Positions 3,102 through 53,114 are shown, counted from the first letter of the stretch. The stretch is DNA of 64,000 nt from Alphaproteobacteria bacterium (GCA_964228455.1 CAXQZM010000070.1:180-64179), one strand, 5' to 3'. Notes: generated from the sequence alone by a model not told the origin. Numbers and translations are program-made.

Positions 3102-3677
3102 ATGCACAATTATAAATCGGCACAAAAGCTGCATCGAAGCCAAAGTATATTTCTTTTTGCGTCAATGTCTTTGTTAACCGTGGCAATGCTATACTTAGCG
3201 CTTGTTAGGCCTTTTTCAGTTGGTTTCGACTTAAATTCAGTAGAGGAGGGTCGACGCTTGCAAGTTTTTGATGCTGCTGATGACTCCTACACGTCCCTAA
3301 ACAATCGGTTACTTGGACTTCGTGCCCAAGTATTATCTGGCGAGTTCAAAGGGACCGAGCTAACAGCCAATTCAATTAGTCAGCTTGATGGCATTGAGCA
3401 GCCATTTGTAATGGAATTAAATGCTAATGGCCCTGCAGGAGAAATACTCGCAGTTGGGCTCGCACGACCCGGCGAAAACCGTGAGGTTTATGAATTTCCT
3501 GCTGGCCTTACTGCAGATAATACAAGAGAACGCCTTGATTCTGAGAATTTAATGATCAATGTAGATGAGGGTACTGCGGAAGCACGAGGCAAGACCTACG
3601 TTGAGTCAGAGGATTCAATAATTAAAGCTGACGAAGGTCTTTTCATCGACAGGGAAGGCAACATTGAAATACGTTAA
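3102..3677 (+). CDS. lptC: LPS export protein LptC (putative)
   Basis: Single N-terminal TM segment, about 190 aa. Position between kdsD and lptA. Sequence alone is weakly diagnostic, so the call rests mainly on gene order. Confidence 0.5.
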   Translation: MHNYKSAQKLHRSQSIFLFASMSLLTVAMLYLALVRPFSVGFDLNSVEEGRRLQVFDAADDSYTSLNNRLLGLRAQVLSGEFKGTELTANSISQLDGIEQPFVMELNANGPAGEILAVGLARPGENREVYEFPAGLTADNTRERLDSENLMINVDEGTAEARGKTYVESEDSIIKADEGLFIDREGNIEIR

Positions 3678-4461
3678 ACTCTTATTACTCGCACTCTCTG
3701 CGAGTATTGCACCAAGCCACGCCCAAACTCCATCTATCAGCTTAAACTTGGAAGGAGAGCAGGGCGACATAAATGTGCAAGTTGGGGAAAGCCTTCAGCG
3801 AGACGTAGAAAAAGGGATAGTTCGTTTAACCGGCGGCATCCAAATTCGACAAGCCGATGGCGCAATAGTTCTGGCAGACAGTGCAGTTCTAATTAGTGAG
3901 CCCAACGCTATTTTTACAAGGGATGCAGAAGCCTTAGAGGGTGCCACTCTGATCGGCCGGGTTTATTTGCGAAACTCAGATGGTTTTGAGATAGAGGCAG
4001 AGACCCTTGAATTAAAAGATGAGCTCACCCGGTTCGAGGCACTTGGAGCACCAGTAGTTGTTAAAATTGATAGCCAAAGTCTTGAGGCCAACGAGGGGCT
4101 TCTTGGTAATTTAGACACTCGTACTTTTTATGGATACGGCGGCGCCACAATTAGTCTCAATGATGGCAAACTTGTAGGCAACGAAGTTCAAATCACCCTC
4201 CCCAAAAACCCTCAAGATCGCCCAAAAGTTCTTGCACGAGGGGACGTTTTGTTTGTCAATTTAACCGCTAGCGTAGCAGCTGATCAAATGGAAAGTAGCG
4301 ACGACGGTCGCTTTCTCACCTTGAGCGGTAATGTGGAAGTAACAAGTGGTAGCTCAAATTTTTCAAGCGGAAGTATTTTGATAGATCTCGAGACAGAGGC
4401 ATTTACGCTAGAGGCCGCAAATACTGAGCCTCAGGCGGCGCTAAACTTTTTAAAGCCATGA
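3664..4461 (+). CDS. lptA: LPS transport periplasmic protein LptA (OstA-like)
   Basis: Signal peptide MKYVKLLLLALSASIAPSHAQ. Beta-jellyroll-like repetitive segments. Lies immediately upstream of lptB and overlaps it. Confidence 0.65.
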   Translation: MKYVKLLLLALSASIAPSHAQTPSISLNLEGEQGDINVQVGESLQRDVEKGIVRLTGGIQIRQADGAIVLADSAVLISEPNAIFTRDAEALEGATLIGRVYLRNSDGFEIEAETLELKDELTRFEALGAPVVVKIDSQSLEANEGLLGNLDTRTFYGYGGATISLNDGKLVGNEVQITLPKNPQDRPKVLARGDVLFVNLTASVAADQMESSDDGRFLTLSGNVEVTSGSSNFSSGSILIDLETEAFTLEAANTEPQAALNFLKP

Positions 4462-5216
4462 TAGAAACTCCACTACGCAATGGATTAGTTGCCCAAGGTT
4501 TAAGGAAATCATATGGCCGTCGCGCTGTTTTATCAAAAGTTGATTTTGATGTGCAACGTGGCGAAGTCGTAGCTATTTTGGGACCTAATGGCGCGGGCAA
4601 AACCACAAGTTTCTATATGATGTGTGGGCTTACGAAAGCGGACTCGGGTCGCGTGATAATGGACGGAAAGGATATAACGAAATTACCCATGTATATCCGT
4701 GCGCGAATGGGAATTGGGTATTTGCCACAAGACTCAAGTATTTTTCGAGGCCTGAATGCGGAGCAGAATATTTCCTCAATTCTGCAGCTCGGAAACAAAA
4801 CAAAAAAAGAACAGCGAGAACGACTTGAGCAACTATTGGATGACTTTGGATTGCAACGAGTTCGCAAAGCACCTGCCCCTGCGCTGTCAGGCGGCGAGCG
4901 GCGGCGCGTCGAAGTAGCACGCGCTCTAGCATCGGATCCATCCTACATACTGCTTGATGAGCCGTTCGCAGGTGTCGACCCGATTGCAGTCGCAGATATT
5001 AGAGCTCTAGTTTCAAAACTAAAAACTTATGGGATCGGTGTTTTAATTACAGATCATAACGTTCGTGAAACGCTTGAAATTGTCGACCGCGCATTCATCA
5101 TCTACGATGGTACAATTCTGAAATCTGGATCAGCCAAGGAAATAATAGAAGACCCGGCGGTACAACAACACTATCTAGGAGACTCGATGAAGCGCTCCAG
5201 TCACCTTAATGACTAA
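4458..5216 (+). CDS. lptB: LPS export ABC transporter ATP-binding protein LptB
   Basis: Walker A GPNGAGKTT, ABC signature LSGGERRRVEVARAL, Walker B ILLDEP. 252 aa. Confidence 0.9.
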   Translation: MIETPLRNGLVAQGLRKSYGRRAVLSKVDFDVQRGEVVAILGPNGAGKTTSFYMMCGLTKADSGRVIMDGKDITKLPMYIRARMGIGYLPQDSSIFRGLNAEQNISSILQLGNKTKKEQRERLEQLLDDFGLQRVRKAPAPALSGGERRRVEVARALASDPSYILLDEPFAGVDPIAVADIRALVSKLKTYGIGVLITDHNVRETLEIVDRAFIIYDGTILKSGSAKEIIEDPAVQQHYLGDSMKRSSHLND

Positions 5217-5787
5217 ACTTTCAACTAGGAAAGCTCTCCTTGCACAGAGGAAGAAAGCGCACTCAGAGGAGTTGGAGGGAAACTTACCAGCCATGGCCAA
5301 GTGGCTGCTAGCGCAACTCGATACTAGCAAGATCTTGGCTAGCTACAAGCCTATTGGATCTGAGCGTGATCCAGGTCCTTTAACTAAACTTTTAAATATT
5401 CAATTAACGTTTCCTAAGGTTATGGGCTCAGCTCAGCCGCTGTCGTTTTTTTCAGCCTCCAAGGTTGATGATTTCGAACGAGGTGCTTTCGGCGTAATGG
5501 AGCCAAAAGACCTCCTAACCGAAATTCTGCCAGACATTGTCATCGCTCCTCTCGTTGGCTTCGATGAGAACGGATACCGAATGGGCTATGGTGGGGGGTT
5601 CTATGATCGCACTTTAGCTAAATTGCGAGCCGTTAAGAGTGTAACCGCAATCGGTTACGCCTATGAAAAACAGCTTAGCAAGAACCCTCTAAATTTTGAA
5701 CCCACGGACTTAGCTCTAGATTTTGTTATGACCCCTTCAAATCTTTATAAATTTAATAGCGGAAAAGATAAGTTCACATGGTCCTGA
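5209..5787 (+). CDS. 5-formyltetrahydrofolate cyclo-ligase
   Basis: Diagnostic GYGGGFYDRTL motif (GxGxGYYDR). About 190 aa. Confidence 0.8.
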   Translation: MTKLSTRKALLAQRKKAHSEELEGNLPAMAKWLLAQLDTSKILASYKPIGSERDPGPLTKLLNIQLTFPKVMGSAQPLSFFSASKVDDFERGAFGVMEPKDLLTEILPDIVIAPLVGFDENGYRMGYGGGFYDRTLAKLRAVKSVTAIGYAYEKQLSKNPLNFEPTDLALDFVMTPSNLYKFNSGKDKFTWS

Positions 5788-6593
5788 GAATAGGTGTCTT
5801 TGGTGATGTGGTGGGCCGAGCCGGGCGAAGTGCTGTGCTGAAACATATGCCGCTTGTTAAAGAAGCTCTCAAGCTGGACTTAGTGGTACTTAACATTGAA
5901 AATGCAGCTTCAGGCTTTGGTTACACACAAAAAATGGTCGAGGAATTTGAAGCAGCTGGGGTGGATGCAATGATTACTGGTAACCATGCTTTTGACCAGA
6001 AAGACGCAAATCAACTATTATCAACAAAACGTAGCCTAATCCGCCCAGCTAATTATCCTGAAGGAACACCTGGGATAGGATTATGCGAAGTTCAAACTCC
6101 CAAGGGCTCTATTGTAATTGCTCAGGTTATGGGGAGATTGTTCATGACACCTTTAGATTGTCCATTTAAAACGGTAGATAATCTTTTAAGGACCCACCGA
6201 TTAGGCGAAACATGCAAGGCGATTCTAGTCGATATTCATGGTGAAGCCACCTCAGAAAAAATGGCAATGGGACATTACCTTGATGGCCGGGTAACACTTG
6301 TTGAGGGCACCCACACCCATGTCCCGACAGCAGACACCATGATTTTACCGAAAGGAACTGCTTATCAGACCGATCTGGGTATGACAGGTGACTACCATTC
6401 TGTAATTGGTTTTGACCCACAGGTTCCAGTAAATCGGTTCAAGACGGGTCGAAGCGGAGGACGGCTAACACCGGCTTTAGGCGAGGCAACGCTAAGCGGA
6501 ATATACGTAGAAGCAGATTTAAACACCGGCTTAGCACAAAAAGCAAAACCAATTCGTACAGGCGGAAAATTAATTTCGACCTTATCCACATGA
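5778..6593 (+). CDS. YmdB-like metallophosphoesterase (TIGR00282 family)
   Basis: N-terminal RIGVFGDVVGRAGR and NIENAASGFG motifs typical of the YmdB calcineurin-like phosphoesterase family. Confidence 0.8.
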   Translation: MVLRIGVFGDVVGRAGRSAVLKHMPLVKEALKLDLVVLNIENAASGFGYTQKMVEEFEAAGVDAMITGNHAFDQKDANQLLSTKRSLIRPANYPEGTPGIGLCEVQTPKGSIVIAQVMGRLFMTPLDCPFKTVDNLLRTHRLGETCKAILVDIHGEATSEKMAMGHYLDGRVTLVEGTHTHVPTADTMILPKGTAYQTDLGMTGDYHSVIGFDPQVPVNRFKTGRSGGRLTPALGEATLSGIYVEADLNTGLAQKAKPIRTGGKLISTLST

Positions 6594-6770
6594 GCTAAGG
6601 TGAGTCCCCAAGCGGACTTTCGACTCTTGCGGGCAAAAGAATCCCCAGCTCAAACGACTCGAGTGCCGATTACAGACTTTCCCCGAGTCGCGAACCGTGA
6701 GAAAGGTGCCTTTCAAGAGGCCAAAACATCAGTGTAGCGGCGTTAGTTCTAATGATGAGAGGGACGTGTG
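6594..6770 (+). ncRNA. Candidate 6S RNA (ssrS-like), unverified
   Basis: About 175-nt non-coding gap on the same strand as the 5-FCL gene (in enterobacteria ssrS is linked to ygfA). By-eye partial resemblance to E. coli 6S motifs: CUUGCGGGC..UCCCCAGCUC versus E. coli GCAAGCGGGCCAGUCCCCUGAGCC, and GAGAAAGG..CCAAAAC..GUAGCGGCG versus GAGAAGCCUUAAAAC..CUGCGGCGGC. UCCCC/GGGA segments could close a central bubble. Not verified with a covariance model. Confidence 0.3.
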
Positions 6771-7265
6771 GACAGGGGATTTGATGCATTCTTAGAAAAT
6801 CCGATCGACACGGTAGAGGATGTCCTCACGCCGGATGACAGTCTTCAGCTCACACGCCCAAGCACGCGTGAATTGTTGATTGTTACTCCAGGTCAGTGGA
6901 GCTCTTACCGCTTGCACTGCTATTGGCAAACAGAGCTTCAAGCGCTTCACACTGCGTCCATGATGGAATTAAATATTTCGAAAGCACAAAAGCCAAAAAT
7001 AATGGAGCTAATGTGTCTAATTAACTCACGGCTTTGGATTGGGCACTTTGAGTTCTCCGATGAAGAGACAATGCCAGTCTTTCGCCATGGACTATTGCTT
7101 CGCGGCCAAGATCGTGTAGCTCGCGAACAAGTTGAAGATATGATGGAAGTAGCTATCGGAGAATGCGACCGGTTCTATCCTGCTTTTCAACTTGTCCTCT
7201 TGGCCGACCATGAGCCCAAGGATGCACTTCAAGCAGCGATGGTAGAGACAGTTGGCGAAGCCTAA
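6768..7265 (+). CDS. YbjN-domain protein (putative)
   Basis: 165-aa ORF directly upstream of proC. GTG start at 6768, start uncertain. Family assignment from general resemblance and from the ybjN-proC pairing I recall in alphaproteobacteria. Confidence 0.5.
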   Translation: MDRGFDAFLENPIDTVEDVLTPDDSLQLTRPSTRELLIVTPGQWSSYRLHCYWQTELQALHTASMMELNISKAQKPKIMELMCLINSRLWIGHFEFSDEETMPVFRHGLLLRGQDRVAREQVEDMMEVAIGECDRFYPAFQLVLLADHEPKDALQAAMVETVGEA

Positions 7266-7348
7266 CCCGGCTCCTTGAAGCGTGAACAAGAACACTTTCA
7301 GTGTGTTATTATGAGCTCCAGGCGAGAAATTTTTGTTAGAGTGAACAT

Positions 7349-8131
7349 ATGAGCGCAAAAAATCTGCTATTTATTGGTGCTGGAAATATGGGCGGCGCCT
7401 TTATCCGAGGCCTTTTGAAGCATGAAACACACCAAATTACTGTAGTGGATCCTGCTAAACCAAACTTTGATGCAGTAACAGTGCTCAGCCACATTAAGGA
7501 ATTCGATGGACCTACCCCGGATGCCGTGATCCTAGCCGTAAAACCACAAATCATGGAGCAAGTAGTATCTGCTTTGAGGGAAAAAATTTATGATAGCTTA
7601 GTCATTTCTATCGCCGCAGGTAAAAAAATAGCTTTTTTTCAAGGTATTTTAGGCAAGAATGCACGTATCATCAGAGCAATGCCTAACCTACCTGCAGCGA
7701 TTGGCGAGGGCATGACATGCTGGGTTGGTAACCATAACCTGGGTCAAAGAGACAAAGAAACCGCTCATGAAATACTGAGAGGTGCAGGTCAGGTACATGA
7801 ATTGCAAGAAGAGAGTGCTGTTGATTCTTGGACAGCTATAGCAGGAAGTGGTCCCGCTTTTGTATTCCACTTTTTGGAGTGCCTGAGCCTAGCTGCAGAA
7901 AAGCTTGGTTTTAATAAGGAGCTTTCTGATCTTCTTGCGATACAGACTACTTTAGGCTCAGCCAAACTTGTCAAAGAGTTAAATGATGAATTTATTACAT
8001 TACGAGAGAGCGTTACTAGTCCAGGTGGAACTACCGCAGCTGGGTTGGCTGTTTTGATGGAGAAACTGCCCGAATTATTAGTTCAGACAAGTCTAGCAGC
8101 TCATCAGCGTTCTGTTGAGTTAAGCGGCTAG
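7349..8131 (+). CDS. proC: Pyrroline-5-carboxylate reductase
   Basis: Rossmann motif LLFIGAGNMGGAFIRGLL and a C-terminal ProC dimerization region. 260 aa. Confidence 0.9.
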   Translation: MSAKNLLFIGAGNMGGAFIRGLLKHETHQITVVDPAKPNFDAVTVLSHIKEFDGPTPDAVILAVKPQIMEQVVSALREKIYDSLVISIAAGKKIAFFQGILGKNARIIRAMPNLPAAIGEGMTCWVGNHNLGQRDKETAHEILRGAGQVHELQEESAVDSWTAIAGSGPAFVFHFLECLSLAAEKLGFNKELSDLLAIQTTLGSAKLVKELNDEFITLRESVTSPGGTTAAGLAVLMEKLPELLVQTSLAAHQRSVELSG

Positions 8132-23692: not shown

Positions 23693-23782
23693 AGAGAGGT
23701 GGCCGAGTGGCTGAAGGCGCTCCCCTGCTAAGGGAGTAGGCGTGAAAATGCCTCGTGGGTTCGAATCCCATCCTCTCTGCCA
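23693..23782 (+). tRNA. tRNA-Ser (anticodon GCT)
   Basis: Manual fold: acceptor AGAGAGG/CCTCTCT, anticodon stem CTCCC/GGGAG with loop CTGCTAA, long variable arm GGCGtgaaaatGCCT, T-loop GTGGGTTCGAATCCCAT, discriminator G, encoded CCA. Confidence 0.85.
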
Positions 23783-39358: not shown

Positions 39359-39484
39359 CGCAAGTCAATGCCCGAAAATACAAGGTACGGTCTCGTATAA
39401 TCGCCAATAAAATAGGCACTACCCATCCACTTCCGTATAAAAAATTTGAAACAGATTTAATTGCTAGATGCGGAAAATTACGGA

Positions 39485-39578
39485 AAGCTGGCGAACGACC
39501 CGCGCTCCATCCCCTATGGCTGCTCCGTTCCCGGCCTGACCAGGTTCAGGGCAAAGCTCGTCCGCCGCCAACTTTCCT
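39485..39578 (-). ncRNA. ffs: Signal recognition particle RNA (4.5S-type)
   Basis: The minus strand reads CCUGGUCAGGCCGGGAACGGAGCAGCC. This matches the E. coli 4.5S domain IV sequence CCAGGUCAGGUCCGGAAGGAAGCAGCC, including the GGAA tetraloop and the AGCAG asymmetric-loop residues. G-rich 5' and 3' arms (GGCGGCGGACGAGC / GCGCGGGUCGUUCGCC) can pair. A sigma-70-like promoter sits just upstream. The ends are approximate. Confidence 0.65.
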
Positions 39579-47011: not shown

Positions 47012-48304
47012 ATGGTGCTTACTCCCTCCTTAGGTCTTAAGCAGCGTCAACGTCTTGGTTTGACACAAGAAATAAAGTCGTCTCTTCAATACCTGGCACT
47101 GGCGGGGCTTCGATTAGAACAAGCCCTTACAGATGTTTTAGATTCTAACCCATTTCTGTCAGTTCGAAGCACGCACCCAATTCATAGCGAAGCTGATTGG
47201 TTGACAAATTTAGCTTCACCTGGACCTGAGTCTATCGCAACGGCTCTTCGCCTGTTGGCTACCGACTTATTTTGGACGCCAGAAGACAAATTTCTAAGCG
47301 ATATGCTCATTGATGAGGTCGGCGATAATGGCTTACTAGAGTTGCCCCTTGCTGACATTGCTGAAGATAATCGTATTGAGCTAGACCGGCTCAGACCGAT
47401 TCAGGACAAGTTTCTGGCTGAAGGCGGTTTGCTTGCTGACAATTTAGGCCATAGCCTAAGCGCACAAGCCGTTGCAAAGGTTCAAGTTGGTGACTGGCCA
47501 AACGAAGTTTTGGCTGAGGTACTAGAGGCATGTGACCTTTTAGACTTGATAGCATGCGGTGAGTTCACGCCAAATGCAAAAATTCTCGACCTAGTGCGAA
47601 CCCTTAACCCCCGGCCGGCCGATAATTTAGACTTAGAAGCTGCCGTAATTATACCGCCAGATCTCATTGTTGAAGAGTATGAAAATAACTGGCGCATAAG
47701 CCTAAATCCGCTGACGAATAGAGCCTACGAATTAGATGTTGATGCGCTAGGTGGTTTGAGTCCCAATGAGCAAAAGCAACCAAATATCGCTGAACCAATA
47801 AAAACTGCAAAAAGTACCGTAAGAGCACTGAAGGCACGTAAGCAAACTTTGGTTAATCTTGGTTATTTTCTGTGTAAAAAACAAGATGCTGCGCTTCGCC
47901 ACGGAAGAGCGCAACTGTCACCACTTACTCAAATGGACGCTGCAGAAGCGTTAGATTGTCATTCCTCCACTATATCGCGGGCTGTCGCAGGAAAAACGAT
48001 TCAAACCCCACAAGGGGTTTGGCCTTTAAGAGATTTTTTTTCTGCACTAATTGATCCCAACTCACTCTTATCAGGAGCCCAGCTGCGAGCGTGGCTTACA
48101 GAGACCATCTTTGAAGAAAATCGAACTGCTCCAATGTCGGATGCTGAGTTAGCAATTAAATTATCTGAACTTGGGCATGAGGTTGCTCGACGTACAATCA
48201 CAAAATACCGTCTTCATATAGGCTTGCCGGGTGCAGCGGCTCGGCGACGCCTATACTCTAGACGGTCACCAAATTTTAAAACATATAAGAAAGGGAAACT
48301 ATGA
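47012..48304 (+). CDS. rpoN: RNA polymerase sigma-54 factor
   Basis: N-terminal Gln/Leu-rich activator-interacting region (LKQRQRLGLTQEIKSSLQYLAL) and the C-terminal RpoN box ARRTITKYR. Followed by hpf. 430 aa, which is short for sigma-54. Confidence 0.85.
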   Translation: MVLTPSLGLKQRQRLGLTQEIKSSLQYLALAGLRLEQALTDVLDSNPFLSVRSTHPIHSEADWLTNLASPGPESIATALRLLATDLFWTPEDKFLSDMLIDEVGDNGLLELPLADIAEDNRIELDRLRPIQDKFLAEGGLLADNLGHSLSAQAVAKVQVGDWPNEVLAEVLEACDLLDLIACGEFTPNAKILDLVRTLNPRPADNLDLEAAVIIPPDLIVEEYENNWRISLNPLTNRAYELDVDALGGLSPNEQKQPNIAEPIKTAKSTVRALKARKQTLVNLGYFLCKKQDAALRHGRAQLSPLTQMDAAEALDCHSSTISRAVAGKTIQTPQGVWPLRDFFSALIDPNSLLSGAQLRAWLTETIFEENRTAPMSDAELAIKLSELGHEVARRTITKYRLHIGLPGAAARRRLYSRRSPNFKTYKKGKL

Positions 48305-48867: not shown

Positions 48868-48950
48868 GTCAGTGCAGCAGTAGACTTGCCATAAAGTAGC
48901 CTCAGAGTTAGGGCTTAAACAGAATGAACATAGAGGGGAGCAGCACGCTC

Positions 48951-49724
48951 ATGCAGTTTAGTTTTCGAGCTTCAATGGCCTTAACTTTGATTTGCTGTGG
49001 AAATCTTGCAGTTGCACAGTCACAAGCACTCACGCCAGGTGCGGCGGCCATCGGCGGTACAACAACCAGTACTCAGTTAATTGGACCAGGAGGATCCTTG
49101 GTTCCGATTAGAGCCGCTCCCAATGCAGAGGACACTTCTCAGACCTCTACTCAAATAACCACAGGTGAAAGTAGCCTTCGCAGCTCCGATCAAAGTGAAC
49201 CAGTAGTGCTCCCAGCTGATCGGACTCAAGAAGCTACTGCTACTGAAACATCTGAACAAACGAGTGCACCAGAGAAAATTGAAGAGCCAAAAACTGTAGA
49301 AACAAGCATCCCTCAACCTCCTGAGAACGCCGAGACATCGCAAATTACGGCAGGCGCCACGCCAACGACCGCACCAGCAGCTGAAGATGATGAGGCAGGC
49401 GCGCTAAACCCTATTAATACTTTCGAACCAGCCCGCCTTGATTTTGGTAACGAGGGTATTGCATTAACAGCTCAACACGAAATTGCTCTTGACCCAATTG
49501 CAGCTCTTATGAGAGCAAATCCACTTATGCCGCTCCAAATCATTGCGGTGCTGCCACTCTCCGAAGCAACAAGCGACGAGGCAAAACAGAAAGCACGGAG
49601 AAGAATACTTGCTGTTCGAAGCAATCTAATTTCACGTGGGCTTAGCGCAGATAATCTGACATTTGTAATATCCGCCAATACAGAGTCGGAGCCTTTTGCT
49701 AACTTTATCCTTATTGAACGCTAA
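48951..49724 (+). CDS. Secreted protein with Ser/Thr/Glu/Pro-rich linker and degenerate OmpA-like C-terminal domain
   Basis: Signal peptide MQFSFRASMALTLICCGNLAVA-QS, then about 110 aa of low-complexity T/S/E/P-rich sequence. The C-terminal 100 aa (ARLDFGNEGIALT...ILAVRSNLISRGLSADNLTF) follows the OmpA C-domain spacing but lacks the GHTD core motif. Start set at the ATG 48951, preceded by GAGGGGAG. The stop overlaps the next gene (TAATG). Confidence 0.55.
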   Translation: MQFSFRASMALTLICCGNLAVAQSQALTPGAAAIGGTTTSTQLIGPGGSLVPIRAAPNAEDTSQTSTQITTGESSLRSSDQSEPVVLPADRTQEATATETSEQTSAPEKIEEPKTVETSIPQPPENAETSQITAGATPTTAPAAEDDEAGALNPINTFEPARLDFGNEGIALTAQHEIALDPIAALMRANPLMPLQIIAVLPLSEATSDEAKQKARRRILAVRSNLISRGLSADNLTFVISANTESEPFANFILIER

Positions 49725-50836
49725 TGATCATACTTGCCCGCCCACTCATTTTAATATTCATCGCACTAGCTGCGCTTTTAACGATTTTAAGTCTTCAGTT
49801 CGGTCCAATTAGCGCATTTTTCGCAGAAAATTTGGTGATAAATAGCCTGATTTTAGGCGTTTTCATAATTGGGCTATTTTTATCATTCTGGCGGCTTTCA
49901 GCTCTTGCATTCGAAATTACTTGGATCGATCGGATTAGAAATGCCACACAAGCCAGCGATGCAGATGAATTAGCTGGCCCTAGGGTAGTTGCGCGCCTGC
50001 ATATGCTTGCGGCATTTGCAAATGTCTGGCGCCGATTTTTTGATTCCAGTCAAGCTCTAACCCCCGATCTCGCAACAACTTTAGTTGACTCGGCCCAAAA
50101 TCGACTTGATGAGCGAAGAGAGCTCTCTCGCTACCTTGCTAATGCCTTGCTAATTCTAGGTTTGCTAGGAACTTTCTGGGGTCTTCTTGGTGCATTAATT
50201 GGAATGCGTGAGGCACTTGGAAATCTCGATGCTCAACAAGATTTCTTTACGGGTCTATCTAGCTCGCTGTCAGCGCCTTTAGAAAGCATGGGCACTGCGT
50301 TTTCATCTACCTTATTTGGTCTGGCTGCTTCGCTTTTGTTTGGGTTCATTGAACTTCAGACCACTCGCGCGCATTCTGCATTTTTGGAAAATTTTGAAGC
50401 CTGGCTTGCTACTTTTATGCAGACAACAGAACTTGCTTCAGATGACAACAAACATCCGATGTCAGCAAAACCGCGTCCATCGATAGAGCCAAATGCAAAT
50501 ATAGAGACGCTTGGTCACCTAATGCGGCGGGGTCAGCAAGATACTATGGTCTTGAACAATAACCTCGTGAGTCTTTTAGATCAGATAACTCGCGTTGCTG
50601 ATAAAGTAGAAGCAAACCACCTAGTTCACGAAAAGATACTCTCATCTCAGATGACTAATGAGCAGCTTATTGATAAAATTGAGGTTTTAGTGGATACTTT
50701 GACAATAGAAAAACAAACAGATTCTTTATCGGGCATTGATAATAGGATTGTAGCAACTGCAGAAAGCATAGAGCCAAACGATTACAAAGATCCCGCAGAT
50801 GATGCTGCCGCGGACTCGAGTAAAGACGAAAGTTAG
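49724..50836 (+). CDS. MotA/TolQ/ExbB-family proton-channel protein with C-terminal hydrophilic tail
   Basis: Four TM segments. TM3 contains LGLLGTFWGLLGALIGM, the MotA_ExbB signature. A C-terminal stretch of about 140 aa is polar and coiled-coil-like. Confidence 0.7.
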   Translation: MIILARPLILIFIALAALLTILSLQFGPISAFFAENLVINSLILGVFIIGLFLSFWRLSALAFEITWIDRIRNATQASDADELAGPRVVARLHMLAAFANVWRRFFDSSQALTPDLATTLVDSAQNRLDERRELSRYLANALLILGLLGTFWGLLGALIGMREALGNLDAQQDFFTGLSSSLSAPLESMGTAFSSTLFGLAASLLFGFIELQTTRAHSAFLENFEAWLATFMQTTELASDDNKHPMSAKPRPSIEPNANIETLGHLMRRGQQDTMVLNNNLVSLLDQITRVADKVEANHLVHEKILSSQMTNEQLIDKIEVLVDTLTIEKQTDSLSGIDNRIVATAESIEPNDYKDPADDAAADSSKDES

Positions 50837-50842
50837 GCTACC

Positions 50843-52033
50843 GTGGCGCGGAGACGCAGCATCAATGGGGAGCTTAATGTTTGGCCTGCTTTTGTGGATG
50901 TCCTCGCGACACTACTTCTCGTCATTATTCTATTGGTGCTAGCAGTTACGCTTACTCAATTTTATACAGCAAATCGGGCTTCCGGATTAGAGCGTATAGG
51001 AGATCAACTCAGCGATCAGCTAGAGCAGCGAGTAAGACAATTAACCGCATTACAACAGGAACGTGAGAGCCTAATTCGAGAAGGGGATGACCTTAGAAGT
51101 AATGTGGGTGAGTTAACTTATCAGGTGAACACACAGTCAAATGAAATAGACGAACTCCAGATTCTACGCGATCAATTATTTGCCCAAATTGCTCTTCAAG
51201 CTGATGAACTTAACGTTCTGAAGAGTGAGCAAATAGAGTTGACCAATAATAGCGAAGCAGCTGAGAAAGCGGTGGAAGATCTTCTGCTTAAACTTGCTGA
51301 AATAGAAGGCGGGGATGTTGATCTTGAAGGCGGCTTGCTAACTGTATTAGGACAAATGGACGATAAACTAGAACGACTGCTTAACGTTCTTTCGAATGCA
51401 GAGAGGGAACGCAAAAATGCGGAAAATCAGCGCGCAGCCGCAGAAAATGAACTTGCAGAACTTGATGCCAATAACTTTATCCTTCTTGCCGAAAATGAGG
51501 GCTTAAGAGCTAATTTAGAAACGCTAAGCTTAAGCGAGAGGCTTAACGACTCATTGCTTATAGAAGCGGAGGAACTTGGTCGCCAGCGCTCCGCTTTCTT
51601 CGCTAATTTGATTGAAGTATTAGGGGAGCGTGATGATGTCTCAGTTGTTGGTGATCGATTTGTCTTCCAATCCGAGGTTTTGTTTGATTCTGGCTCTGCC
51701 AGGCTAGGAATTAGTGGTGAAGCACAACTTACACGCCTTGCTGAAACGATAATGTCTTTAGCCTCAGACTTCCCATCTGACTGGATTTTAAGAGTTGATG
51801 GCCATACCGATGCAAGACCCATTTCGCCTAGTTCTAGAAGCCGTTATCAGAATAACTGGCAGCTTAGTTCAGAGCGGGCTCGTTCTGTTGTAGAGTCACT
51901 AATTGCACAAGGGGTGCCACCAAACCGGCTTGTTGCAGCTGGCTTTGGAGAGCACCAACCCCTAATCGATGAAGACACCCCAGAAGCTTTAGCTAAAAAT
52001 CGTCGTATTGAGCTCAAACTAACAACGCGATGA
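50843..52033 (+). CDS. MotB-like protein with long coiled-coil linker and C-terminal OmpA peptidoglycan-binding domain
   Basis: N-terminal TM with MotB/TolR-type Asp (WPAFVDVLATLLLVIILL). About 230 aa of heptad-like Leu/Glu/Gln-rich sequence. OmpA domain with FQSEVLFDSGSARL...RVDGHTDARP...NWQLSSERARSV...NRRIEL. Confidence 0.7.
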   Translation: MARRRSINGELNVWPAFVDVLATLLLVIILLVLAVTLTQFYTANRASGLERIGDQLSDQLEQRVRQLTALQQERESLIREGDDLRSNVGELTYQVNTQSNEIDELQILRDQLFAQIALQADELNVLKSEQIELTNNSEAAEKAVEDLLLKLAEIEGGDVDLEGGLLTVLGQMDDKLERLLNVLSNAERERKNAENQRAAAENELAELDANNFILLAENEGLRANLETLSLSERLNDSLLIEAEELGRQRSAFFANLIEVLGERDDVSVVGDRFVFQSEVLFDSGSARLGISGEAQLTRLAETIMSLASDFPSDWILRVDGHTDARPISPSSRSRYQNNWQLSSERARSVVESLIAQGVPPNRLVAAGFGEHQPLIDEDTPEALAKNRRIELKLTTR

Positions 52034-53039: not shown

Positions 53040-53114
53040 TGGCTGGCGCGGCAGGATTCGAACCTGCAATCTACGGTACCAAAAACCGGTGCCTTACCAT
53101 TGGGCCACGCGCCA
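53040..53114 (-). tRNA. tRNA-Gln (anticodon TTG)
   Basis: Minus strand reads UGGCGCGUGGCCCAAUGGUAAGGCACCGGUUUUUGGUACCGUAGAUUGCAGGUUCGAAUCCUGCCGCGCCAGCCA. It is near-identical in its core (AAGGCACCGGUUUUUG.UACCG) to E. coli tRNA-Gln(UUG). Acceptor pairs UGGCGCG/CGCGCCA. CCA is encoded. Confidence 0.8.

Follow-up and report, generated by a model that had tools for sequence, protein, structure and literature searches.

Ion-driven 5:2 motors, namely MotAB, ExbBD, TolQR, GldLM and ZorAB, form a small set of machines, each with a distinct output. We analyzed a stretch of 64,000 nucleotides from an Alphaproteobacteria bacterium (GCA_964228455.1, CAXQZM010000070.1:180-64179; henceforth, the window), in which a gene for an exported OmpA-like protein (48951-49724, + strand) lies directly upstream of genes for a channel subunit and an anchor subunit. 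We put the probability that this protein, henceforth the window protein, acts as a tether or accessory subunit in an envelope machine formed with the two downstream proteins at roughly 0.6, and have much less confidence in any specific output of such a machine.

Among described systems, Tol-Pal (TolQRA with TolB and Pal) and Ton (TonB with ExbBD) are like the three-gene module in several respects. The channel models closest to TolQ and ExbB, the genes are ordered partner-channel-anchor, the third component has a C-terminal globular domain as well as a long spacer, and an OmpA-like wall-binding element belongs to the system. However, in the module's anchor, which is MotB-like rather than TolR- or ExbD-like, a coiled coil is combined with a canonical OmpA domain. 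Moreover, its third protein is predicted to be soluble, with a cleaved signal peptide, instead of being anchored by a transmembrane segment, and no homology to TolA, TonB or TolB was seen. The ZorAB core of Zorya likewise pairs an ExbB-like A subunit, which has a cytoplasmic helical tail, with a MotB-like B subunit that carries a peptidoglycan domain. By contrast, the tail in the module is much shorter, there are no effector genes, the synteny is that of housekeeping genes and there is an extra gene for a periplasmic OmpA-like protein.

MotY, the T-ring accessory of the PomAB stator in Vibrio, is also secreted, has a C-terminal OmpA-like domain and is used with a stator-type pair. It differs from the window protein in its folded N-terminal domain, intact peptidoglycan site and flagellar role, whereas the window protein has a disordered N-terminal part, a degenerate site and a partner channel that is not MotA-like. 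Neither the MotA fold with its torque-generating cytoplasmic domain nor the flagellar gene context of the flagellar MotAB stator is found in the module. The OmpA_C domains (PF00691) of Pal and YiaD share with the window protein the order beta-alpha-beta-alpha-beta-beta, a G.SAD..L segment and a ligand-binding Arg on the second helix. Unlike these proteins, the window protein lacks a lipid anchor, has lost the Asp and Asn of the diaminopimelate (DAP) site and has a shortened C-terminal loop. It further differs in its conserved motif near the N-terminus, in its long disordered spacer and in a score below the Pfam threshold.

The PRK09039 pairs of Alphaproteobacteria, which are annotated as MotA/MotB (e.g., motA/motB of Komagataeibacter hansenii), provide the best NCBIfam family of the window's anchor, although at a score below the cut-off (PRK09039.1-2, “peptidoglycan-binding protein”, 267 bits versus 305). 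The Thalassospira anchor passes the same model (457.8 versus 305). In K. hansenii, which is non-flagellate, overexpression of “motA/motB” resulted in elongated cells and looser cellulose, and disruption in denser cellulose (PMC6570709, PMC7347698). The two papers do not mention an upstream OmpA-like gene. This pair may belong to the family of the window's module, and the OmpA-like subfamily described below does occur with its pair in Acetobacteraceae. We found no publication on the three-gene module in the literature on PRK09039, on channel/OmpA pairing or on non-flagellar MotAB in Rhodospirillales, and a 2025 paper on MotAB phylogeny does not single out the module's family.

Genes of the module

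The module consists of the following elements.

48933..48940, + strand: GAGGGGAG box resembling a Shine-Dalgarno sequence, which ends 10 nt ahead of the ATG at 48951 (seen directly in the sequence)
48951..49724, + strand: gene for the exported OmpA-like protein (list of open reading frames (ORFs), 12 homologues, conserved synteny)
49724..50836, + strand: channel subunit, 370 amino acids, four predicted transmembrane segments, long cytoplasmic helical tail (Pfam MotA_ExbB, 31.5 bits)
50843..52033, + strand: anchor subunit, 396 amino acids, GTG start (Pfam OmpA, 61.8 bits; PDB profile matches)

The first gene encodes 257 amino acids plus a stop codon. An in-frame ATG at 48924 is an alternative start that would give 266 amino acids, and it is the one used in the NCBI entry for an identical protein from a marine metagenome-assembled genome (“hypothetical protein [Alphaproteobacteria bacterium]”). 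Given that all aligned homologues start at the position of 48951, and given the GAGGGGAG box, we favor 48951, and the coordinates in the initial annotation are correct. A reading of the frame as a spurious ORF or a pseudogene was rejected because of its conservation and synteny.

The stop codon of this gene (TAA, 49722-49724) and the ATG of the channel gene share one nucleotide, at 49724, in the sequence TAATG. This overlap had been noticed previously, and it suggests translational coupling of the two genes. It had also been taken to imply fixed stoichiometric co-expression, which is not established. The overlap is not conserved; the corresponding distances in relatives range from -3 to 363 bp. 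The channel and anchor genes are separated by a 6-nt gap, which is followed by the GTG start of the anchor. A scan of the surroundings of the three genes for promoters and terminators gave fewer counts than the shuffled expectation and was uninformative.

The channel passes the Pfam MotA_ExbB model, has more than 5,600 homologues and carries invariant polar Thr residues in its third and fourth transmembrane segments. Its AlphaFold2 model exhibits long helices, including a cytoplasmic helical tail of ~150 amino acids (helices 174-240 and 256-330). Foldseek ranks TolQ and ExbB first (E ~1e-3, probability 1.0), then ZorA, and finds MotA only at E 0.08. The NCBIfam MotA model matches with an E-value of 0.098, and a profile of the channel had no match to PDB sequences at E <= 0.01. 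The channel models as a TolQ/ExbB/ZorA-like protein and not as flagellar MotA, and the database name “flagellar motor protein MotA” for its homologues looks like a misannotation. The downstream pair was originally called MotAB-like. This description fits the anchor, whose domain is of the MotB/PomB type, but not the channel, for which MotA ranks far below TolQ, ExbB and ZorA in the Foldseek comparison.

The anchor has a MotB-type transmembrane helix with Asp19 and a canonical OmpA domain, in which GHTD...N..LS..RA is intact and which is closest in the PDB to MotS, MotB and PomB. Between the two lies a coiled coil of 218 amino acids that is proline-free and rich in Leu and Glu. When fully extended, this coiled coil would far exceed the distance from the inner membrane to the wall.

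Models of ZorA and ZorB in PADLOC and NCBIfam touch the channel and anchor, ZorA structures are among the Foldseek matches of the channel, and the channel has a cytoplasmic helical tail. These properties would be expected if the window protein were an accessory of a Zorya-like anti-phage system, an explanation that we consider extremely improbable. The matches are limited to generic transmembrane and OmpA parts, the window protein itself has no PADLOC match and the module occurs in conserved housekeeping synteny across genera. Membership of the module in Zorya was rejected given a ZorA_4 score of 26 bits versus a cut-off of 500 and the lack of effector genes (ZorC/D/E-type) among the module's neighbors.

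A degenerate OmpA-like domain with a retained arginine

The C-terminal domain and the two positions most relevant to its ligand site are located as follows. AbOmpA denotes OmpA of A. baumannii, and HMM stands for hidden Markov model.

49422..49721, + strand: degenerate OmpA_C-fold domain, amino acids 158-257 (AlphaFold2, Foldseek, profile matches)
49557..49559, + strand: Leu203, at the position of the DAP-amine-binding Asp (Asp271 of AbOmpA; D of GH(T/A)D) (HMM and MAFFT alignments)
49602..49604, + strand: Arg218, equivalent of the DAP-carboxylate-binding Arg (Arg286 of AbOmpA; R of RRA) (alignments to Pal and YiaD)

The initial annotation proposed a degenerate OmpA-like fold for the C-terminal region, and profile searches, structure prediction and Foldseek bear this out well beyond chance. 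A PDB search with the single sequence gave 0 matches, and only profiles gave matches. A profile built from the 12 nearest homologues finds Pal, and a profile of 43 C-domains from the subfamily matches YiaD (3e-11) and MotY (6e-10), then Pal, OmpA and YfiB. We built the AlphaFold2 model on an alignment of the 12 closest homologues. In it, residues 158-257 have a predicted local distance difference test (pLDDT) score of 86-93 and are arranged as beta-alpha-beta-alpha-beta-beta (strands 161-164, 195-201, 236-242 and 252-256; helices 174-189 and 209-228). When this model was compared with the PDB, Foldseek returned Pal as the top fold match of the C-domain, along with OprF, MotY (LPHT ring), SiiA, FopA, PorE, MotB and AbOmpA (probability 1.0, target-normalised template modeling score 0.6-0.73). 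Because the homologue profile, the AlphaFold2 model and the Foldseek matches are three independent lines of evidence, we regard the OmpA-like nature of the C-domain as settled, and its homology to OmpA-like domains is secure despite a Pfam score below threshold. Several members of the window protein's clade have a precomputed PF00691 match.

In OmpA-like domains, an Asp and an Arg, which are Asp271 and Arg286 in AbOmpA, hold the DAP of peptidoglycan, where the Asp binds the amine and the Arg binds the carboxylate (PMC12108004). Binding of meso-diaminopimelate by PapS of R. rubrum is abolished when this Arg is mutated (R223A; PMC11369160). We mapped the corresponding site in the window protein using HMM and MAFFT alignments to Pal, YiaD and the canonical OmpA domain encoded two genes downstream. 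The position of the Asp is occupied by Leu203 in the window protein and by A/E/Q/N/G in the broad subfamily. The canonical Asn is Ala211, and the LS of LS..RA is lost, with Lys214 and Ala215 aligning to L-G of Pal. The window clade additionally lacks the C-terminal (D/N)R(V/R) element. However, Arg218 (R70 of the domain) is the sole invariant column across 43 subfamily members, whose mutual identity is ~20%. Given this invariance, the domain would be better described as having a retained, altered ligand site than as an empty shell, and the alignment argues for a ligand site, probably carboxylate-binding, that is still under selection in the subfamily. The earlier statement that the peptidoglycan-contacting core was replaced is thus correct for the Asp, the Asn and the LS, but not for the Arg of RRA, which is kept.

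A stronger form of that statement is that the domain is a pure structural mimic, which does not bind peptidoglycan and instead makes protein-protein contacts, for instance if it capped the anchor's OmpA domain or paired with it in the style of MotY or FlgT. Such a role would fit the loss of the DAP-amine-binding Asp and of the Asn, both in the window protein and throughout the subfamily, and the clade's further loss of LS and of the (D/N)R(V/R) element. In addition, a basic ARRR...R patch is a candidate site for contact with an acidic surface of another protein. However, it is hard to explain without a ligand site why the canonical ligand-binding Arg should be the only invariant residue in 43 divergent members. 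There is also no N-terminal domain of the MotY type and no flagellar context. We therefore view the mimic explanation as possible but doubtful, and the original conclusion that the protein is not a true peptidoglycan binder is not established.

The accompanying comparison with MotY and FlgT is valid as an analogy, but it does not extend beyond this. In addition to the missing N-terminal domain, an NCBIfam scan gave no MotY match for the window protein, and no flagellar genes are present within ~5 kb on either side of the module (43.4-56.8 kb). A Thalassospira relative scores 25.6 bits with the MotY model, whose cut-off is 400.

Export signal, N-terminal motif and spacer

The region preceding the C-domain has three parts.

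48951..49016, + strand: signal peptide, amino acids 1-22, with cleavage predicted after AVA and before Q (read by eye)
49017..49094, + strand: mature N-terminal motif QSQALTPGAAAIGGTTTSTQLIGPGG, amino acids 23-48 (invariant columns among close homologues)
49095..49421, + strand: acidic, low-complexity, S/T/P/E/A-rich disordered spacer, amino acids 49-157 (composition; pLDDT <50)

Export signals support the previous assignment of the protein as secreted. The N-terminus reads as a Sec signal peptide that would be cleaved between AVA and Q. In the alignment of close family members, as in the broad subfamily, the h-region is variable, while the A-x-A site followed by Q is conserved. A lipoprotein or Pal-like reading was rejected because the TLIC/LICC segment is not a canonical lipobox, its Cys residues are not conserved and an NCBIfam scan gave no Pal_lipo match. 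An uncleaved transmembrane anchor resembling that of TonB or TolA was also rejected, as the alignment suggests cleavage: the variable h-region is followed by the conserved A-x-A site and Q, with a motif at the mature N-terminus.

The invariant core of the QSQALTPGAAAIGGTTTSTQLIGPGG motif in the alignment of close homologues is L.TPGAAA.GG.T...LI.P.G, and the window clade invariably has Q.LTPGAAAIGGTTT..LI.PGG at the mature N-terminus. Given the low pLDDT of amino acids 23-48, the motif probably becomes ordered only when it is bound to a partner. In the broad subfamily, a different motif, (S/N)V.V(D/N).SVL(D/N).LG, is found within ~20 residues of the predicted cleavage site and is followed by a spacer of variable length. 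We read this motif in the N-terminal 20-60 amino acids of upstream ORFs at loci L005, L006, L011, L014, L015, L040, L086 and others. The motif of the window clade and that of the broad subfamily appear to be equivalent in position only, and we do not claim that they are homologous. The broad-subfamily motif is beta-strand-like and reminiscent of a TonB box or of TolB N-terminal handles, a likeness that is qualitative only.

A long spacer rich in S, T, E and P was proposed previously, and its properties agree with this proposal. Residues 25-157 consist of 69% S/T/P/E/A/Q and include 19 acidic residues versus 5 basic ones. The AlphaFold2 model has pLDDT values below 50 in the spacer, and residues 1-157 are modeled as disordered. 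Among relatives, the spacer's length is highly variable. The clade has a second motif, R.H.PDP.WP..LP..R, inside the spacer (window positions 49170-49223, amino acids 74-91). This motif is degenerate in the window protein, where only P..LP..R is kept, His is replaced by Arg and Trp by Glu.

The combination of a mature N-terminal peptide, a disordered tether and a globular domain of the wall type suggests a two-ended connector. A protein with such an architecture might also be the substrate of the motor rather than its subunit. It would then be a one-chain analogue of the N-terminal handle of TolB plus Pal, in which the motor grabs the N-terminal motif (e.g., by beta-strand augmentation) and pulls on the wall-docked domain via the spacer, in order to relocate or release it. 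This idea agrees with an architecture in which a short conserved motif begins the mature protein and is followed by a variable spacer and then by a Pal-like domain, with Pal as the top fold match, with a channel model closest to TolQ and ExbB and with a gene order that mirrors tonB-exbB-exbD. However, the idea is wholly inferential, and the N-terminal motif resembles TonB or TolA boxes only qualitatively. The window protein has a cleavable signal peptide and no transmembrane anchor, and neither the channel nor the anchor was found to contain a TolA- or TonB-like domain. We therefore consider a substrate unlikely, both in general and with respect to the pulling mechanism, and continue to prefer an accessory or tether subunit.

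Gene linkage and proposed role

The window protein's own clade comes from marine metagenomes and is tiny: a set of 5.8 billion clusters contains 12 of its proteins, and a library of 1.84 billion (1.84e9) proteins contains ~11-14 representatives. Weaker matches of the clade profile in the latter library are ordinary PF00691 proteins. In all five loci of the clade, including the window, the gene order is rpoN-hpf-OmpA-like-channel-anchor.

The channel family is broad, and other Alphaproteobacteria exhibit the order efp-suhB-OmpA-like-channel-anchor. Because efp-suhB precedes the module elsewhere and rpoN-hpf precedes it in the window clade, we conclude that the three genes moved as a unit. The efp-suhB setting, with or without the OmpA-like gene, was seen at 3384-7353 of locus L005, at 3707-7388 of L006 and around 4900 in L023, L027 and L029.

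We scanned GTDB representative genomes with the channel alignment, which yielded at least 80 loci, and then surveyed these loci with HMMs. The matches listed are relatives with 30-39% identity, and the window's own clade is not among them. An HMM of the window protein's C-domain matched almost exclusively the ORF located directly upstream of the channel gene. Among 83 loci with enough upstream DNA, 49 have an OmpA-like gene on the same strand as the channel gene, whose start it precedes by -3 to 363 bp. Nitrospirillum, Azospirillum, Thalassospira, Thalassobaculum, Kiloniella, Dongia, Acidisoma, Roseomonas, Elioraea and other Acetobacteraceae are represented among the 49. Five of the surveyed loci (L011, L020, L035, L034 and L043) are on GTDB contigs labeled as Patescibacteria, Gammaproteobacteria, Oceanobacillus or delta/beta proteobacterium, and these contigs are probably mis-binned or mislabeled.

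The relationship between the window protein and these upstream proteins was also seen in the reverse direction. An HMM built from upstream proteins outside the clade assigns 35.1 bits to the window protein, versus 15-25 bits for downstream anchors. In hhalign, the window protein and the Thalassospira upstream protein align with an E-value of 8e-06 over the entire domain, and a second alignment has an E-value of 9e-05. The window protein also has the architecture of the subfamily, in which a signal peptide, a short motif and a variable spacer precede a C-domain that ends the protein. By these sequence comparisons, the window protein is a divergent, further-degenerate member of the upstream OmpA-like subfamily, whose members are called only “OmpA family protein” or “hypothetical protein” in the source databases. 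The linkage to the downstream pair postulated at the outset is therefore supported both within the clade (5 of 5 loci) and, via a related upstream gene, beyond it (49/83).

Under the preferred reading, the window protein would be a soluble periplasmic protein with two functional ends and a flexible acidic spacer between them, and would be physically associated, as a tether or accessory subunit, with a proton-driven envelope machine that is non-flagellar and of the 5:2 type. The module comprises this OmpA-like protein, a TolQ/ExbB/ZorA-like proton channel and a MotB-like anchor, and is widespread in Rhodospirillales-type Alphaproteobacteria. The C-domain may dock reversibly at the cell-wall layer through a weakened, non-canonical site around Arg218, which presupposes contact with peptidoglycan. 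The N-terminal motif may dock on a second partner, which could be the motor's periplasmic face or a component of the outer layer. The 5:2 stoichiometry is assumed by analogy with TolQR, ExbBD and ZorAB, and the biological output of the module is likewise something that we can only infer.

Several observations weigh against this interpretation. An adjacent OmpA-like gene is missing in 34 of the 83 loci, which include Devosia, Mesorhizobium, Hyphomicrobiales, Paracoccus, Limimaricola, Kordiimonas, a SAR116 genome, Chiayiivirga and others; in some of these loci the order is efp-suhB-channel-anchor. Since the pair occurs there without such a neighbor, the OmpA-like gene is dispensable or encoded elsewhere in many lineages. 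A comparison of the channels of loci that have the upstream gene with those of loci that lack it, aimed at a co-varying docking region, revealed no region that differed. An HMM of the broad-subfamily motif had no significant score on the window clade, i.e., homology of the clade's LTPGAAAIGG motif was undetected. The Pfam OmpA model (PF00691) matches the window protein with an E-value of 0.0057 and 17.4 bits, below the gathering threshold of 27.2, and without the Asp the domain may no longer bind peptidoglycan at all. Judging by the 83 loci, the OmpA-like gene is a recurrent, but not universal, third component of the module.

The loci without the gene also bear on whether the window protein is an independent, ordinary peptidoglycan-associated protein of the OmpA family, similar to YiaD or Pal, that merely neighbors the pair. 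The retained Arg and the family profile, which best matches YiaD, Pal and OmpA, would be natural in such a protein. However, same-strand adjacency at -3 to 363 bp is maintained across many genera despite differing surroundings (efp-suhB versus rpoN-hpf), the subfamily HMM specifically picks the upstream gene and there is no lipobox or barrel that would anchor the window protein elsewhere. We regard independence as quite unlikely and a tether or accessory subunit as the better account.

The genes flanking the module in the window are coaBC, lepA, rpoN, hpf, recR, ybaB, tRNA-Gln, a GNAT acetyltransferase, msrB, hsp20 and an ABC-F ATPase, i.e., the context is a housekeeping one. The rpoN gene ends inside the beginning of hpf, the two sharing 4 nt (48301-48304), and the adjacency of rpoN and hpf is kept in all clade loci. 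RNA genes in the window are:

23693-23782, + strand: tRNA-Ser(GCT)
39483-39573, - strand: small signal recognition particle RNA
53040-53114, - strand: tRNA-Gln(TTG)

The core idea of the initial annotation, that a degenerate OmpA-like accessory is tied to the channel pair, survives, while its flagellar analogy and its conclusion that the protein does not bind peptidoglycan need correction. The window's gene itself is a modest variation, and the widespread, uncharacterized motor is the more interesting object. The module has thousands of homologues in Alphaproteobacteria, which are annotated only as “MotA”, “peptidoglycan-binding protein” and “OmpA family” or “hypothetical protein”. Once the upstream OmpA-like gene is recognized as a third component that recurs with the pair, the misleading annotation “flagellar motor” is corrected, and the conserved N-terminal motif and the invariant Arg provide a handle on the object upon which the motor acts. 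The altered site is also a natural test case for changes of ligand specificity in OmpA-type domains.

A more far-reaching and speculative possibility, which we think improbable as it stands, is that the module is an undescribed, vertically inherited envelope motor of Alphaproteobacteria that has a soluble “Pal-like” protein as its dedicated periplasmic client. If so, a pentameric TolQ/ExbB/ZorA-like channel with its cytoplasmic tail and a MotB-like dimer with its long coiled coil would seize the conserved mature N-terminus of the client and, by way of the disordered spacer, pull on its OmpA-type domain, such that the client would be a single-chain functional analogue of the TolB box plus Pal. 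The altered site, with its Arg kept and its Asp lost, would then read a different state of peptidoglycan, such as stem peptides without a free DAP amine.

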